Source: a virus (taxonomy: Duplodnaviria; Caudoviricetes). From it: 25,685 nt of DNA. Position numbers and translations under genes: made by a program. Numbering within the stretch: position 1 is the stretch's first letter; every line of letters begins with the position of its first letter. The notes beneath the pieces are model-generated. The model made no database searches. It saw only the letters and a list, made by a program, of their open reading frames with translations, and was not told where the DNA came from. This document shows positions 6,777 to 21,582 of this stretch, in pieces. The stretch spans positions 1-25,685 of IMG/VR virus record IMGVR_UViG_3300020044_002886; one strand, written 5' to 3'.

Positions 6777-8027
6777 TTAACGGTCTAGTAGACCTCTGCG
6801 GATAATTGTACCGCTTGAGTCCATTTGAATAAGGTTGTCAGGATATACGTCCAGGCCATACCCTGTATCACCAGTGTATTCAAACGGAAAATATTTCCTA
6901 CGCTCTTCAGGAGTCAAGTCCATTCGGCGCTGTGTAAGTCTTGCCTCGGCTTCACCCATCAGGTTTCCGTATGCTTGCATTGGGTCAATTTGAGCAGCAC
7001 CAACCAGCGATTGCCGTTGATTTATTAGGTCATCGTACTCATTACGCAGCACAGACTTTTCTTGAGCAGTTGTTGCAGGGTTATCAATTTGCTGAACAAG
7101 CGCACGCATTTTTTCATTTAAAGAAGTGATTTGCTGGTTTGCTTCATAGCGCATTTTTGCAAAATCACGGGCATTTCCACCGACTCCAAAACCTTCAATG
7201 TCTTGAATTGAGTGCTGCAATTCATGTAATGTTGTTGATCTTGGGTTGTTCAGTAGGCCTTGAGTAGTTACATCAAGTTGATTGCCGTACAAAGAACCGC
7301 GCATTCCGTCATCACCCGATTTGCGACCCTGATAAACAACTCTTTGAGCAAGCTCAGGGTAAGCCTCAAACAAAGCTGGATGCTCAAGCGCAACATTTGC
7401 GTAGTTCCCAGTCATCCGAGGATCGGCGCTATAGCCGTAAAAGTCACTTACAGACTCTTGCAGCGATTCCGTTTTACCTTTTAACTCTTTCTTTGCTTGC
7501 GTCAATTCTTTAGGAAAAAGGTCTTTTGCCTCTTTTCCTCGCTGCTTTACAGCATCTAGCATCTCTTTGTTTAAAGCAATTTCAGATTCAATTTGTTCTT
7601 TTTTTGCACGAATGTCAGTGGCTGAATTAAATTTAGAGCCTTGATCGCTAATCTCTTGTCGCCATTGACCATCTGGCCCTTTAACAGTTCCAGTTGTTTG
7701 CCAAATCTCTTGAGGGGTTGCGCCCTTCTTTGCCATTTGACTAGCTTTAAATGCCATGTCTTTATTAAACATCTTGGACGATGGCCCGATAAACATCCCA
7801 ACAGGGTTGTACGCCTCAGCCATCAGACTAGCCAAACGCTGCGTAGCTGGACCGTAGTCAATGCCTTCCTTTGCGGCAGCGGCTGTCATCTCATTCAGAT
7901 TACGCGCCCTGTCGTTAAGGTTTCCAACAAACTGCTGTGCGCTCAATAGCGGATTACCAAGCAAATCGGTCAACTTTCGTTTCGCTACGTTGCCAGCACT
8001 GAAAATTTCACCAAGTAATCCAGCCAT
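6777..8027 (-). CDS. LPD23 (large polyvalent protein-associated domain 23) protein with HExxH zincin-like motif
   Basis: IWQTTG...GPDGQWRQEISD, HPALFEAYPEL, TTLHELQHSIQDIEGFGVGG and Y..LMGEAEARLTQRR are motifs I recognise from LPD23/metallopeptidase polyvalent proteins. Confidence 0.78.
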   Translation of the reverse strand: MAGLLGEIFSAGNVAKRKLTDLLGNPLLSAQQFVGNLNDRARNLNEMTAAAAKEGIDYGPATQRLASLMAEAYNPVGMFIGPSSKMFNKDMAFKASQMAKKGATPQEIWQTTGTVKGPDGQWRQEISDQGSKFNSATDIRAKKEQIESEIALNKEMLDAVKQRGKEAKDLFPKELTQAKKELKGKTESLQESVSDFYGYSADPRMTGNYANVALEHPALFEAYPELAQRVVYQGRKSGDDGMRGSLYGNQLDVTTQGLLNNPRSTTLHELQHSIQDIEGFGVGGNARDFAKMRYEANQQITSLNEKMRALVQQIDNPATTAQEKSVLRNEYDDLINQRQSLVGAAQIDPMQAYGNLMGEAEARLTQRRMDLTPEERRKYFPFEYTGDTGYGLDVYPDNLIQMDSSGTIIRRGLLDR

Positions 8028-13131: not shown

Positions 13132-13868
13132 GCTGTTAAAACTTTCCATGCTGTTGCTGCACAAAGTGGGACTTGTCCGTTACCAATGGCTTTAAGTCTG
13201 TCCACCCGACTGGATAACCCATCATTGCTTCCGAATGTTCTGGGATCGGATACGTCAGGCCAAATTTGATCTTGCACCAATGCCTCAATTGATCTGTTCT
13301 TGCTCGGCCTGTTTTGCTGTGGACTGTCGTTGTGCCACCCTTCCAATCGTCTGCCAATGGAGTTGGCAACAATCCAGATTCTTTCGCGTTTATGAGAGGC
13401 TCCGACAGCGTTTGCTCCCAGCACTCCCCATTTAGCATCAAACCCCATAAAGGCCAAATCTCCAAGAACAGTTCCAAGTCCCCTAGAAACGAGCATTGGT
13501 GAGTTCTCCACAAACACGAATCTTGGTCGTACTTCACAAATGATCCTTGCCATTTGCTTCCACATTCCTGATCTGGCCCCGTCAAGTCCATCGCCTTTTC
13601 CGGCTGCTGAGATGTCTTGGCATGGAAACCCACCCGAAACAACGTCAACAATTCCTCGCCACGGTTTTCCGTCAAAGGTTTGTACGTCATCCCAAATCGG
13701 GAAAGGCGGGAGAAGCCCGTCATTTTGCCTGGCGCACAGTACGCTAGCTGGATAGGGTTCCCATTCAACGGCGCAGACTGTGTTCCATCCGAGGAGCTTT
13801 CCTCCGAGAATCCCGCCACCTGCTCCGGCAAATAAAGCGAGTTCATTAAGGCTTTGCTGATTAGCCAT
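13128..13868 (-). CDS. dcm: C5 cytosine DNA methyltransferase, catalytic (alpha) polypeptide lacking motif IX
   Basis: Motif I LFAGAGG, IV GGFPCQDIS, VI FVENSP, VIII HKRERIWIVA, X RLKAIGNGQVP; no motif IX between VIII and X. Confidence 0.93.
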   Translation of the reverse strand: MANQQSLNELALFAGAGGGILGGKLLGWNTVCAVEWEPYPASVLCARQNDGLLPPFPIWDDVQTFDGKPWRGIVDVVSGGFPCQDISAAGKGDGLDGARSGMWKQMARIICEVRPRFVFVENSPMLVSRGLGTVLGDLAFMGFDAKWGVLGANAVGASHKRERIWIVANSIGRRLEGWHNDSPQQNRPSKNRSIEALVQDQIWPDVSDPRTFGSNDGLSSRVDRLKAIGNGQVPLCAATAWKVLTA

Positions 13869-13873
13869 GACAT
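13136..13873 (-). CDS. Alternative-frame methyltransferase beta polypeptide (carries a motif IX-like segment)
   Basis: 245-codon open frame overlapping the MTase almost end to end; its ATG overlaps the rep stop (TAATG); contains LPTPLADDWKG and PEHSEAMMGYPVGWT, lying just upstream of alpha-frame motif X. Confidence 0.72.
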   Translation of the reverse strand: MSWLISKALMNSLYLPEQVAGFSEESSSDGTQSAPLNGNPIQLAYCAPGKMTGFSRLSRFGMTYKPLTENRGEELLTLFRVGFHAKTSQQPEKAMDLTGPDQECGSKWQGSFVKYDQDSCLWRTHQCSFLGDLELFLEIWPLWGLMLNGECWEQTLSEPLINAKESGLLPTPLADDWKGGTTTVHSKTGRARTDQLRHWCKIKFGLTYPIPEHSEAMMGYPVGWTDLKPLVTDKSHFVQQQHGKF

Positions 13874-14694
13874 TATGCTTTCCTCAGAACTTGATTGATT
13901 TGCTGACGAATGTGGTCAGGCATAGGTGCGGCCTTTTGTCTGTCAGCCTCGATCTTCAGCAGCACAGGATCAGGGCCAGTATGTTGGGCAGGAACTGTTG
14001 TCCTGGCAACGTCAGCAGCTTGTTGGGCAAAGGATTGCTTTGGGGCCACCCACTCAGCTTTAAAACTTGCCCATGTACGCAAACAACACTCTTTGATTGC
14101 GTCCTCAAGAGTCCAGCCAGCTTTATTGACTTGATTTGAAAACAACTCCCAAGCGGTTTGAGTCAGTGGAGCATCCTTCTTCTTCCTGATTACAAGCCAA
14201 TCATTCCAAATTTGCTCATTAACAAAATCAGGCCGCGTTACTAACGAGTCATTTCCCTTCCTTTTCCCTTCCCTTCCCTTCCCTTCCACTTGAGTATGCA
14301 CAAGAGGCGTGACTGACGCGTCAACCACGCGTGACTCATGCGTGCAAGTTGTTGATTCTTCAGGGGAAGGCAGCAAAGATGTTGACTCTCTGTTGTTAAT
14401 TACCTGATGTTGTGACCAAGATGGAATACAGCCAAATTCATCGCCTTCAAAAGAATATTTGACAATAAATCCATGCGTGACTAACGCGTCAAGTACGCGT
14501 GAAAAATCAACTTGATCGTATGGAAGAACATCTAACTTCAATGCTCTAGGTTTCCATTTAAATCTACCTTCTCGATCACAAGCCGTAAACAATCCAATGT
14601 ATGCCAAACGCAAAGGCAATTTGTTTTGCTGCTCCGCTTCGAAAAGTGCTTCATGCCTAAACAACTCAGGCTTAACTGTTCTGATTCGTGCCAT
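13873..14694 (-). CDS. Replication initiator (lambda O-like / replisome organiser)
   Basis: MARIRTVKPELF N-terminus, D.EGRF.W.PR.LK, low-complexity linker EGKGREGKRKG, C-terminal W.DWL..RK.K.APLT.TA domain; internal DNA repeats. Confidence 0.8.
   Translation of the reverse strand: MARIRTVKPELFRHEALFEAEQQNKLPLRLAYIGLFTACDREGRFKWKPRALKLDVLPYDQVDFSRVLDALVTHGFIVKYSFEGDEFGCIPSWSQHQVINNRESTSLLPSPEESTTCTHESRVVDASVTPLVHTQVEGKGREGKRKGNDSLVTRPDFVNEQIWNDWLVIRKKKDAPLTQTAWELFSNQVNKAGWTLEDAIKECCLRTWASFKAEWVAPKQSFAQQAADVARTTVPAQHTGPDPVLLKIEADRQKAAPMPDHIRQQINQVLRKA
14235..14502. repeat. Iteron-like repeats and pyrimidine tract inside rep (candidate origin)
   Basis: GCGTGACTGACGCGTCAACCACGCGTGA (14307-14334) matches GCGTGACTAACGCGTCAAGTACGCGTGA (14475-14502) at 25/28 positions; GCGTTACTAACGAGTCA at 14235-14251; (TTCCC)n tract at about 14253-14287. 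Confidence 0.6.
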
Positions 14695-15061
14695 TGGCCT
14701 TCTCCAGAAACATATTGACCAAATCTTCTTTTGTCAAAACCGAAAGAATGTCACACAAACCATCAAGATCGTAACAATTCCAATAGCCAATTTTTGCCAA
14801 AGAAAGTATCACATTGGCCTTGCAGCCTTCGCTTTCCGCGTGTTGATCGGAATGACAATCAGCACATAAAGTTATGATTGTTTCAGAGTCGTAATCCCAC
14901 GGGCCTTCAGAATAAGGATGATAGTGAGAATGATGGGCGTGAAGCGTTTTTGTCGTGCTTCCGCAGCATCTACAAGCAAATCCGTCACGCTCATAGACGC
15001 GCAAACGCATCTGTTGCCAACGAGGGTCTAGCAATTTTTCGGAATAGCTTTTCTTAGCCAT
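14672..15061 (-). CDS. HNH endonuclease (HNHc)
   Basis: Start set to ATG 15061 (AGGTG RBS); DPRWQQMRL...RDGFACRCCG...LHAHH..Y...PWDY...TLCADCH...H. Confidence 0.85.
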   Translation of the reverse strand: MAKKSYSEKLLDPRWQQMRLRVYERDGFACRCCGSTTKTLHAHHSHYHPYSEGPWDYDSETIITLCADCHSDQHAESEGCKANVILSLAKIGYWNCYDLDGLCDILSVLTKEDLVNMFLEKANGTNQNS

Positions 15062-15095
15062 AAGCCGCACCTTTTAACAATGAGCCACCTTGAAA

Positions 15096-15163
15096 GAAAC
15101 CAACGGAAGGCGAGGTGGGGACGCTTTTCCCAAGGCTCATGACTTCCTTGGTATCCGGGTTTC
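15096..15163 (-). ncRNA. Structured leader RNA, c4/CI-antisense-like architecture
   Basis: Nested stems GAAACC/GGTTTC, CGGA/TCCG, CCAAGG/CCTTGG (loop AAGTCATGAG) and GCG/CGC (loop TCCCCACCT); begins at the predicted transcription start. Confidence 0.6.
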
Positions 15164-15168
15164 ACAAT

Positions 15169-15197
15169 ACTATATCACTTATCTAACGTCTTGCCAA
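15169..15197 (-). promoter_or_regulatory. Sigma70 promoter for the HNH-rep-MTase-nin operon
   Basis: TTGGCA (15192-15197)-17 nt-TATAGT (15169-15174) with an extended -10 TGn. Confidence 0.7.
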
Positions 15198-15516
15198 TCT
15201 CTGCTGCTGCACGGGTGATGGCTCGGCGGGTGGCGGCGTAGGGGTCTTCTAAATGAACCTCCACTTTGCTTGCTAATTTCCGAAGCGGCACTTCCCCGTC
15301 AGTAATTCCGGTTGCTTCACGCCCAATAAAAATGTTCAGATGCAACTTCACCGCCAAACGTAGCGCATCGCCATCGTCTGTGAGGGGGTTCCACATTTGA
15401 GTTATGACCATGCCGCTTTTTGGGTCTGCCAAACATAATCCACGACTCATGTGGTAGCTTTGCCACTTAATGCCCGCCGCCTTTGCAGCCAGTTCCAATA
15501 GTTCTCTGTCAGTCAT
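15175..15516 (-). CDS. Hypothetical phage protein
   Basis: MTDRELLELAAKAAG...WNPLTDDGDALRLAVKL...ATRRAITRAAAEIG, a family I recognise from proteobacterial phages. Confidence 0.85.
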   Translation of the reverse strand: MTDRELLELAAKAAGIKWQSYHMSRGLCLADPKSGMVITQMWNPLTDDGDALRLAVKLHLNIFIGREATGITDGEVPLRKLASKVEVHLEDPYAATRRAITRAAAEIGKTLDK

Positions 15517-15743
15517 TTTGTACCTTTCGGGGGCTTGCCAAAGTATTGTTTCGTTCCGTCTGGATTGTCTTTCTTTAAGATTGTCCAGCCGTGTAGCTTG
15601 ACCATACGTGCCATCTTACTGTGAGGGCTTGTTGTCGGAAGGTAACGGGCTATCTCCGCTGCTGTCGTGCCTTCCTTCTTGGCTAACAGAACTTTTATCC
15701 GTTCCGTCTGGCCGACTGGTTTCTTCTTGAACATTGTTAACAT
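15513..15743 (-). CDS. Small HTH-like protein
   Basis: TQ/GQTERIKVLL....GTTAAEI.....TSPHSKMA......GW.I.K pattern; ATGA-coupled to the downstream gene. Confidence 0.6.
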   Translation of the reverse strand: MLTMFKKKPVGQTERIKVLLAKKEGTTAAEIARYLPTTSPHSKMARMVKLHGWTILKKDNPDGTKQYFGKPPKGTK

Positions 15744-20807: not shown

Positions 20808-20988
20808 TTTGCTTCTCCAAGATTGGCGCGACAAGGTATTCAGGACAAGTCTGTGTGAACTGGCAACGAGGTTTCTGGCAGCGTTCAGCATGGAAGTTGT
20901 CAGGGTTCTGACAGAAATATCGGTAGTGCTCGTCTATACAACCACTCAACATGGCAACACTTATAAACGCCAAAAATGTTTTAAACAT
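20764..20988 (-). CDS. Small Cys-rich lipoprotein in the lysis module
   Basis: MFKTFLAFISVAMLSGC lipobox; mature part DEHYRYFCQNPDN....CQKP.C.....CPEYL. Confidence 0.75.
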   Translation of the reverse strand: MFKTFLAFISVAMLSGCIDEHYRYFCQNPDNFHAERCQKPRCQFTQTCPEYLVAPILEKQIEQTKPAAEPTPVR

Positions 20989-21493
20989 GTGGAGCCTTGT
21001 GGTGCGTAAAGTGTAGGTCTTCTGCCATCTTCCGAGCTTTTACAGCTTCTTCTGCTGTTGCAAAGTATCCCAAATGTTTCTGCTTGTAGTTATGCGTGAT
21101 GGTTGCAGACCAAGGCTTAGATTTCAATCTGGCTTCTTTTCTTACTCCTCGAAATCCAGATGTATTGTTTTTTGTGAGAAAAGTATTTTCACTGTTTTGC
21201 TTATGAGTTGCCAAACGTAAATTTACGGGTTTATTGTTGGCTTTATCACGATCAATATGGTCAATACCAAGTAGCGGAATTGCTCCATAGACATATAGCC
21301 ACATCAAACGATGTGCCAACTGGTCAGTTTGGTCAACACGAATCACAACATACCCAGCAGCATTTATTGAACCTGCTAGTTGACCTTTTTTTGCCTTACC
21401 ACCCATGGTGTTTTTCCACTTGAAAACGCCATCCTCGGTATCGACTTCAAGCAACTCACATAAACGGTCACGCGTTAAAATATCTTTAGTCAT
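20981..21493 (-). CDS. HNH homing endonuclease with C-terminal AP2-like DNA-binding domain
   Basis: LAHRLMWLYVYG..P...IDHIDRDKANNKPVNLRLAT..QN..N; NTSGFRGV...W.A.I......HLGYF.T.EEA..AR; start set to ATG 21493. Confidence 0.9.
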   Translation of the reverse strand: MTKDILTRDRLCELLEVDTEDGVFKWKNTMGGKAKKGQLAGSINAAGYVVIRVDQTDQLAHRLMWLYVYGAIPLLGIDHIDRDKANNKPVNLRLATHKQNSENTFLTKNNTSGFRGVRKEARLKSKPWSATITHNYKQKHLGYFATAEEAVKARKMAEDLHFTHHKAPHV

Positions 21494-21519
21494 TCCATGC
21501 TCCATTGCAATATGATTAG

Positions 21520-21582
21520 AAACACCGGTTGCGGACAACAATCGGTGTTTTGCATTGTAGCAAGAAATGTTATTCATGACAA
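21520..21582 (-). promoter_or_regulatory. Sigma70 promoter and leader hairpin of the HNH cassette
   Basis: TTGTCA (21577-21582)-17 nt-TACAAT (21554-21559); hairpin AAACACCG...CGGTGTTT (21520-21550). Confidence 0.7.

Follow-up and report, generated by a model that had tools for sequence, protein, structure and literature searches.

A three-way-junction leader RNA of the int-alpA type before the HNH-rep-methyltransferase operon of a tailed phage: a putative translational switch

The locus and its surroundings

The window analyzed in this study (the complete stretch of DNA under examination) is the whole 25.7-kb contig of a tailed phage, in which 46 open reading frames (ORFs) were scanned. Its tailed-phage gene set comprises an SU10-type portal, terminase, lysis genes, Erf, RusA and NinB. 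The leader lies on the minus strand and is flanked by a gene without assigned function (15516-15175) and by an operon encoding an HNH endonuclease, a replication initiation protein (Rep) and a DNA methyltransferase (Table 1). Rep is similar to Ralstonia phage proteins over its first half only (59%). Neither a CI-type repressor nor an integrase turned up in the scan of these 46 ORFs, and no alpA gene was found in the window; with regard to CI-type proteins, this agrees with a preliminary description of the same DNA, which had seen no protein repressor. The promoter, structure, loops and sites had all been placed correctly there, as was confirmed on re-check.

Several other features of the window were observed. 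A 76-aa protein (15513-15743, minus strand) matched a helix-turn-helix model faintly (Pfam HTH_23, E 0.25); encoded upstream of the leader, it could act as a small regulator that binds DNA. The gene that precedes the promoter belongs to a mosaic family (PHROG 5086), of which the blocks 15190-15246, 15343-15393 and 15467-15522 are common to many unrelated contigs and the intervening parts vary. A 416-aa protein with an LPD23 large-polyvalent-protein domain is encoded just before the terminase genes (6777-8027, minus strand), and a second HNH endonuclease gene without a recognizable int-alpA leader (20981-21577, minus strand) precedes the lysis genes. Among four loose pattern matches to the leader in the window, no other copy with matching stems was seen by eye.

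Table 1. Positions of the leader RNA, its parts and the neighboring genes in the window
Feature	Position	Strand	Remarks
Sigma70-type promoter	15169..15197	-	-35 TTGGCA 15197-15192; extended -10 TATAGT 15174-15169; start predicted at about 15163-15162
Whole structured RNA, 68 nt, three-way junction	15163-15096	-	Directly behind promoter; covariation
P1 5' strand	15154..15163	-	
P2 hairpin, 6 bp	15130..15151	-	Double changes at all six pairs
P2 loop (L2) with 6-nt palindrome TCATGA (15142-15137)	15136..15145	-	Predicted self-kissing loop
GAAAA junction strand, invariant	15125..15129	-	Fixed by search patterns; also in Rfam int-alpA consensus
P3 hairpin; pyrimidine-rich specificity loop L3 = 15121-15113 (holds CCACCT)	15110..15124	-	
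P1 3' strand (15107-15096) running into U-rich tract (15099-15092)	15092..15107	-	Tract is a possible weak terminator
Target t1 (AGGTGG)	15085..15090	-	Matches L3 perfectly over 6 bp; predicted to form a cis pseudoknot or to serve as a decoy
Target t2 (AGGTGCGG), overlaps Shine-Dalgarno region	15065..15072	-	7/8 match to L3
HNH endonuclease gene, first behind leader	14672..15061	-	ATG 15061; PHROG 119, E 6.5e-13; start aligned across relatives
Replication initiation protein gene	13873..14694	-	PHROG 16167, E 7.4e-42; 23-nt overlap with HNH gene end
DNA methyltransferase gene, next in operon	13136..13873	-	PHROG 1008, E 3.5e-17

Relatives, fold and family of the leader RNA

Protein searches returned 32 loci with HNH and 56 with Rep, and a loose leader match was present in 67 of these 88; a pattern scan added 119 viral loci, and about 1,200 viral stretches were estimated for the long form alone. 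For this form, to which the window RNA belongs, 136 distinct members were parsed and 128 kept after filtering on P2 pairing, tail length and U tract. It should be noted that P1, the junction and P3 were partly prescribed by the patterns with which members were picked, and that the filter dropped 8 of 136. Three further scans in which the P2 loop was left free yielded 95, 62 and 77 distinct members from 120, 120 and 119 loci, most of them short-P2. Kinship inflates all of these member counts, which the type-level tests reduce rather than remove.

The first gene behind the leader, classified by N-terminal motif (n=126), was of the rep type in 103 cases, of the HNH type in 21 and of another type in 2; the leader thus persists while the first gene changes. 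When 12 representative first genes were scanned, 6 proved to encode replication proteins, 3 HNH endonucleases and 1 a methyltransferase, and 2 were unmatched. No DNA match to the leader was found in the cultured-phage collection. Only 8 matches appeared in 185,579 genomes; they come from MAGs of unrelated phyla, most of them lie on short contigs, and they are probably binned phage DNA. In the RNA runs (three of five compared), the shares were 0.05-0.11 and one 167-nt contig (run X1) spans 15016-15178; it was rejected as evidence of expression, as contigs reveal neither strand nor ends.

The promoter agrees with the sigma70 consensus at 10 of 12 positions, and a scan found 5 such sites where 3.9 were expected; taken by itself, the match is thus no better than chance. 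In 103 of 128 relatives, on the other hand, the distance from the end of a TANNNT hexamer to P1 is exactly 5 nt, and the RNA therefore likely starts at P1, in agreement with the start near 15163 that had been proposed. Similarly, the 68-nt multi-stem structure noticed at this position could be resolved as a three-way junction by stem covariation. In 58 aligned members of the 128, 98.0% of cells were paired and 9 of 13 pairs had double changes; none of 500 shuffles was as good, and slid controls reached 35-59% paired. The minimum-energy fold of the 73-nt window stretch alone is a long hairpin (-22.7 kcal/mol, z -2.06), which 6 of 200 shuffles equaled, and the three-way junction (-17.2 kcal/mol) is not the single-sequence minimum. 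The junction was assigned because its stems covary, not because of single-sequence energy. Judged by this covariation, the three-way-junction RNA before the HNH-rep-methyltransferase operon is a real element. The U tract (at least 6 T in the 8 nt after P1) was present in 98 of 128 long-form members and scarce in the wider family (9/62 and 8/77 in two further samples).

The only Rfam match over the element was int-alpA (RF02996; Rfam type 'Gene; sRNA'), at 20.2 bits (E 4.5) and thus below the gathering cut-off of 35.8. Among long-form relatives, 19 of 20 matched this model at 21.6-37.6 bits and 1 passed the cut-off, which was exceeded by 17 of 20 short-form loci, including short-P2 relatives at the equivalent position before rep, as well as by leaders before related rep genes in two other loci (L086 and L089). 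The element shares with int-alpA the three helices and a junction with UA, GAAAA and CU linkers, and the Rfam consensus itself has a loop-tail match and a palindromic P2 loop. It differs in its longer P2 (6-7 bp with a loop of 8-10 nt) and shorter P3, which explain the low score. The family name implies a location between integrase and alpA genes, whereas the context here is a phage rep/HNH operon. In addition, the Rfam model has neither L3-target pairs nor loop-loop pairs. Since most short-P2 relatives and one long-form relative pass the cut-off, the element is a long-P2 outlier of int-alpA. The motif reportedly originates from Weinberg et al. 2017. In the literature found, int-alpA is represented by its gene order and a table entry, with nothing on function and no mention of RF02996, and no account of a kissing, palindromic or dimer loop was found for this RNA. 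The main text of that study (PMC5737381) does not contain int-alpA; its supplement may already describe loop-target or palindrome features.

Leaders also vary within and between phages. One phage (L062) has two leaders that differ in their L3 code: a short int-alpA form (1242-1308; 41.2 bits) lies before an inserted ORF and a long form (2492-2560) before rep. Another locus (L245) has two int-alpA copies above the cut-off. In some loci (L024:2865-2997, L026, L051 and L588-L611), the position next to the promoter, ahead of the same HNH/rep genes, is occupied by another kind of leader in place of the int-alpA form. It consists of two long hairpins, the second being a strong terminator; the two loops are complementary to each other and covary, five versions having been seen among 18 distinct sequences (24 loci), and 8 loci gave no Rfam match of note.

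Covariation of L3 with its targets and the palindromic P2 loop

The leader reads AGGTGGCTCAT at 15090-15080 and carries the Shine-Dalgarno sequence AGGTG at 15072-15068; the preliminary description had noted that a CCACCT loop is complementary to both. Among 128 members, 45 different L3 sequences were observed, and this complementarity goes beyond chance. On average, L3 had a perfect match of 5.68 nt to its own t1 (3.67 when permuted; permutation maximum 4.23) and of 4.95 nt to its own t2 (3.58; maximum 4.16), with 44 loop types in each case, and 0 of 10,000 permutations was as good for either site when one member per type was used. This test was based on ORF-derived start codons (n=126; 2 of 128 dropped), and the duplex-energy, P2-loop and upstream-target tests on start codons from a motif list, some of which are likely wrong (12 at 27-28 nt). 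The covariation was repeated at both sites in two further samples (52 and 67 loop types). Both targets were present in 97 of 126 members, t2 being the weaker signal with only a 3-nt perfect match in 26 of 126. Their positions are also regular: in 93 of 126 members t1 begins 13-14 nt beyond the P1 core, and in 102 of 126 the end of the t2 core is 3-9 nt ahead of the start codon, where the Shine-Dalgarno sequence lies. In the window, the duplex energies were -9.4 (L3:t1) and -8.9 kcal/mol (L3:t2). The averages were -6.2 for t1 and -7.2 kcal/mol for t2; because these energies fail to rank t1 above t2 (72 vs 54), we could only infer which pairing is ON and which OFF.

It had been suggested that the element is akin to P1/P7 c4 (RF01695) and P4 CI. 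In the Rfam scans, however, neither the window (E up to 5) nor 20 relatives (E up to 3) gave a C4 or c4-2 match. c4 RNA is cut from within its transcript and has two antisense loops. Like c4 and CI, the element is a small branched phage-leader RNA with a loop complementary to its own downstream sites. However, it starts at the promoter, whereas c4 and CI are cut from within; it has one antisense loop with two sites instead of two loops; and no upstream L3 target was found in 45 nt (-2.8 for own vs -3.2 for foreign), whereas c4 and CI have targets both upstream and downstream (for the seqA/seqC layout of P4 CI, see PMC4825925). Membership in the C4 family was thus not borne out, nor were the two-loop a'/b' scheme of c4/CI and, within 45 nt, an upstream target. 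The idea that an RNA switch gates the operon held in part: the promoter-proximal RNA and the covariation of a loop with leader and ribosome-binding site stood, and the two-loop scheme did not.

These comparisons bear on the possibility that the element is a c4/CI-like immunity or exclusion RNA, in which a short RNA released at the U tract would act in trans on t1/t2 of co-infecting phages with the same L3 code. The 45 L3 codes in 128 members and the different codes of paralogous leaders in one phage (L062) are in line with it, as is the gene content upstream of the leader in 13 relatives, where Cro-like proteins occurred in 4 and the 63 of 83 ORFs that were scanned showed no CI-type domain. 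A precedent is IsrK of Gifsy-1, for which the available part of PMC4825925 describes a short leader RNA and a read-through mRNA from one promoter, the short form acting on translation of its own mRNA; IsrK differs in activating by strand displacement, no self-kissing loop is described for it in that part, and no sequence or Rfam likeness to the element was found. However, an upstream target (in 45 nt) and a second antisense loop are absent, the genome-collection matches are few and mostly on short MAG contigs, and with no integrase in the window lysogeny is not evident. We therefore consider such a function unlikely.

The role assigned to the second loop had to be revised. In the window, ATGAGCC of the P2 loop can pair with GGCTCAT in the leader, as had been pointed out. 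ATGAGC was found in P2 in 44 of 128 relatives, only 3 of which had the downstream GCTCAT, and three loci (L016, L017 and L025) retained GCTCAT with a different P2 loop. The P2 loop matched its own leader by 3.82 nt and foreign leaders by 3.85, and 1,954 of 10,000 permutations were as good, which shows no covariation; a P2-loop target in the downstream leader was accordingly rejected as a coincidence of the window's lineage. Nor was the own P2 core enriched in the region from P1 to 30 nt into the gene, where a cis partner was sought.

What the P2 loop has kept instead is self-complementarity. Palindromes of at least 4 nt were present in 18 of 21 (shuffle mean 7.8) and 15 of 23 loop types (6.3), with 0 of 10,000 shuffles as good in each case, and this was replicated in 14 of 22 (7.4; 2/5,000) and 21 of 34 (8.6; 0/5,000). 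L3, used as a control, had palindromes in 3 of 45 and 4 of 57 loop types. In the pooled set, 259 of 362 loops contained such a palindrome, representing 13 of the 16 possible tetramer cores, 36 further members had a GACG loop and 67 had neither. A self-complementary central dinucleotide was seen in 127 of the 128 long members and in 166 of the 169 P2 hairpins of odd length (GC 132, AT 21, CG 12 and TA 1); part of this signal is plain conservation among kin, because most have GC. Two neighbors in one strand are unable to pair with each other, which points either to a contact between two copies or to a DNA dyad. A self-complementary apical loop that is kept through compensatory change suggests, at the sequence level, a self-kissing loop. 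According to PMC7357161, natural functional RNA homodimers are rare, and self-kissing retroviral loops include a purine-flanked 6-nt palindrome (HIV-1 DIS) and a GACG tetraloop (Moloney virus). Both loop types occur as alternatives in P2; the likeness is one of loop design, and dimerization of the leader RNA is predicted from it by analogy. Finally, L2 types and L3 codes combine freely, so specificity would reside in L3.

The palindrome might also act in DNA, as an operator or methylation site, with no RNA role. The operon contains a methyltransferase gene, and we take the P2 cores to be typical 4-bp restriction-modification sites. However, the palindrome center sits 0.5-1 nt off the hairpin dyad, GACG is not a DNA palindrome, and no link was found between core type and tetramer frequency in the flanks, as restriction-site avoidance would give. 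A role in DNA only is hardly credible. A purely cis, monomeric switch deserves more weight: t1 would trap L3 during transcription, and L3 would later refold onto t2, leaving a short translation window per transcript, with the P2 loop merely structural or protein-binding. The fixed distance of t1 suits a cis pseudoknot, most short forms are without a U tract, and a second molecule would be unnecessary. Yet the 13 palindromic P2 cores and GACG would go unexplained, although tetramers of the core type are depleted in flanking DNA (for example, GATC 0.48-0.63 in five large groups). We regard this reading as doubtful.

A putative switch tipped by dimerization

Taken together, these comparisons lead us to lean, with limited confidence, towards an int-alpA-type leader that acts as a translational switch, with L3 on t1 being ON and L3 on t2 being OFF, likely tipped by L2 homodimerization. 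As t1 is transcribed first, L3 would pair with it in cis and the Shine-Dalgarno sequence would be free (ON). When leader RNAs accumulate, two copies would kiss through L2, and the second L3, from the partner RNA, would cover t2 (OFF). The partner might be a short species ended at the U tract and devoid of targets; such a release step would not be general, because the U tract is rare in short forms. The outcome would be negative feedback on the synthesis of HNH and, by coupling, of Rep, restricted to phages that share an L3 code. The two sites of a single RNA would be matched by the two loops that a dimer supplies.

The same covariation data could also be read in the opposite direction, with the monomer holding L3 on the Shine-Dalgarno sequence (OFF) and the dimer shifting L3 to t1 (ON). 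The t2 duplex is on average as strong as that of t1, and an activating pseudoknot is known in the IncI1/IncB repZ leaders, where pairing of a leader loop downstream governs translation of the replication initiator (PMC8053102). The element likewise has a leader loop that is predicted to pair downstream; repZ differs in its counter-transcribed antisense RNA and leader peptide, neither of which was found here. However, t1 is transcribed first and matches L3 perfectly, and positive feedback on a nuclease and an initiator would be harder to justify. Dimer activation therefore appears highly improbable.

The repressing switch more likely serves to adjust replication or the dose of the nuclease by feedback in lytic growth than to confer lysogenic immunity, given that no CI-type domain was found upstream in the 13 relatives and that the genome collection gave only the 8 matches. 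More tentatively, and with less confidence than in the switch as such, int-alpA leaders may be protein-free, self-counting repressors, in which a kissing dimer of the DIS or GACG type forms and the programmable P3 loop of one copy shuts the ribosome-binding site of the other. If true, such leaders would be an RNA counterpart of dimeric phage repressors; they would have dozens of orthogonal codes and would sense either the copy number of the genome or co-infection. Control of translation through dimerization of the 5' leader itself would add a new type of autoregulation. The many L3/t1/t2 codes, which combine freely with L2 types, could also be put to use as compact orthogonal riboregulators. 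Our analysis takes an orphan Rfam motif to a testable mechanism with named parts.
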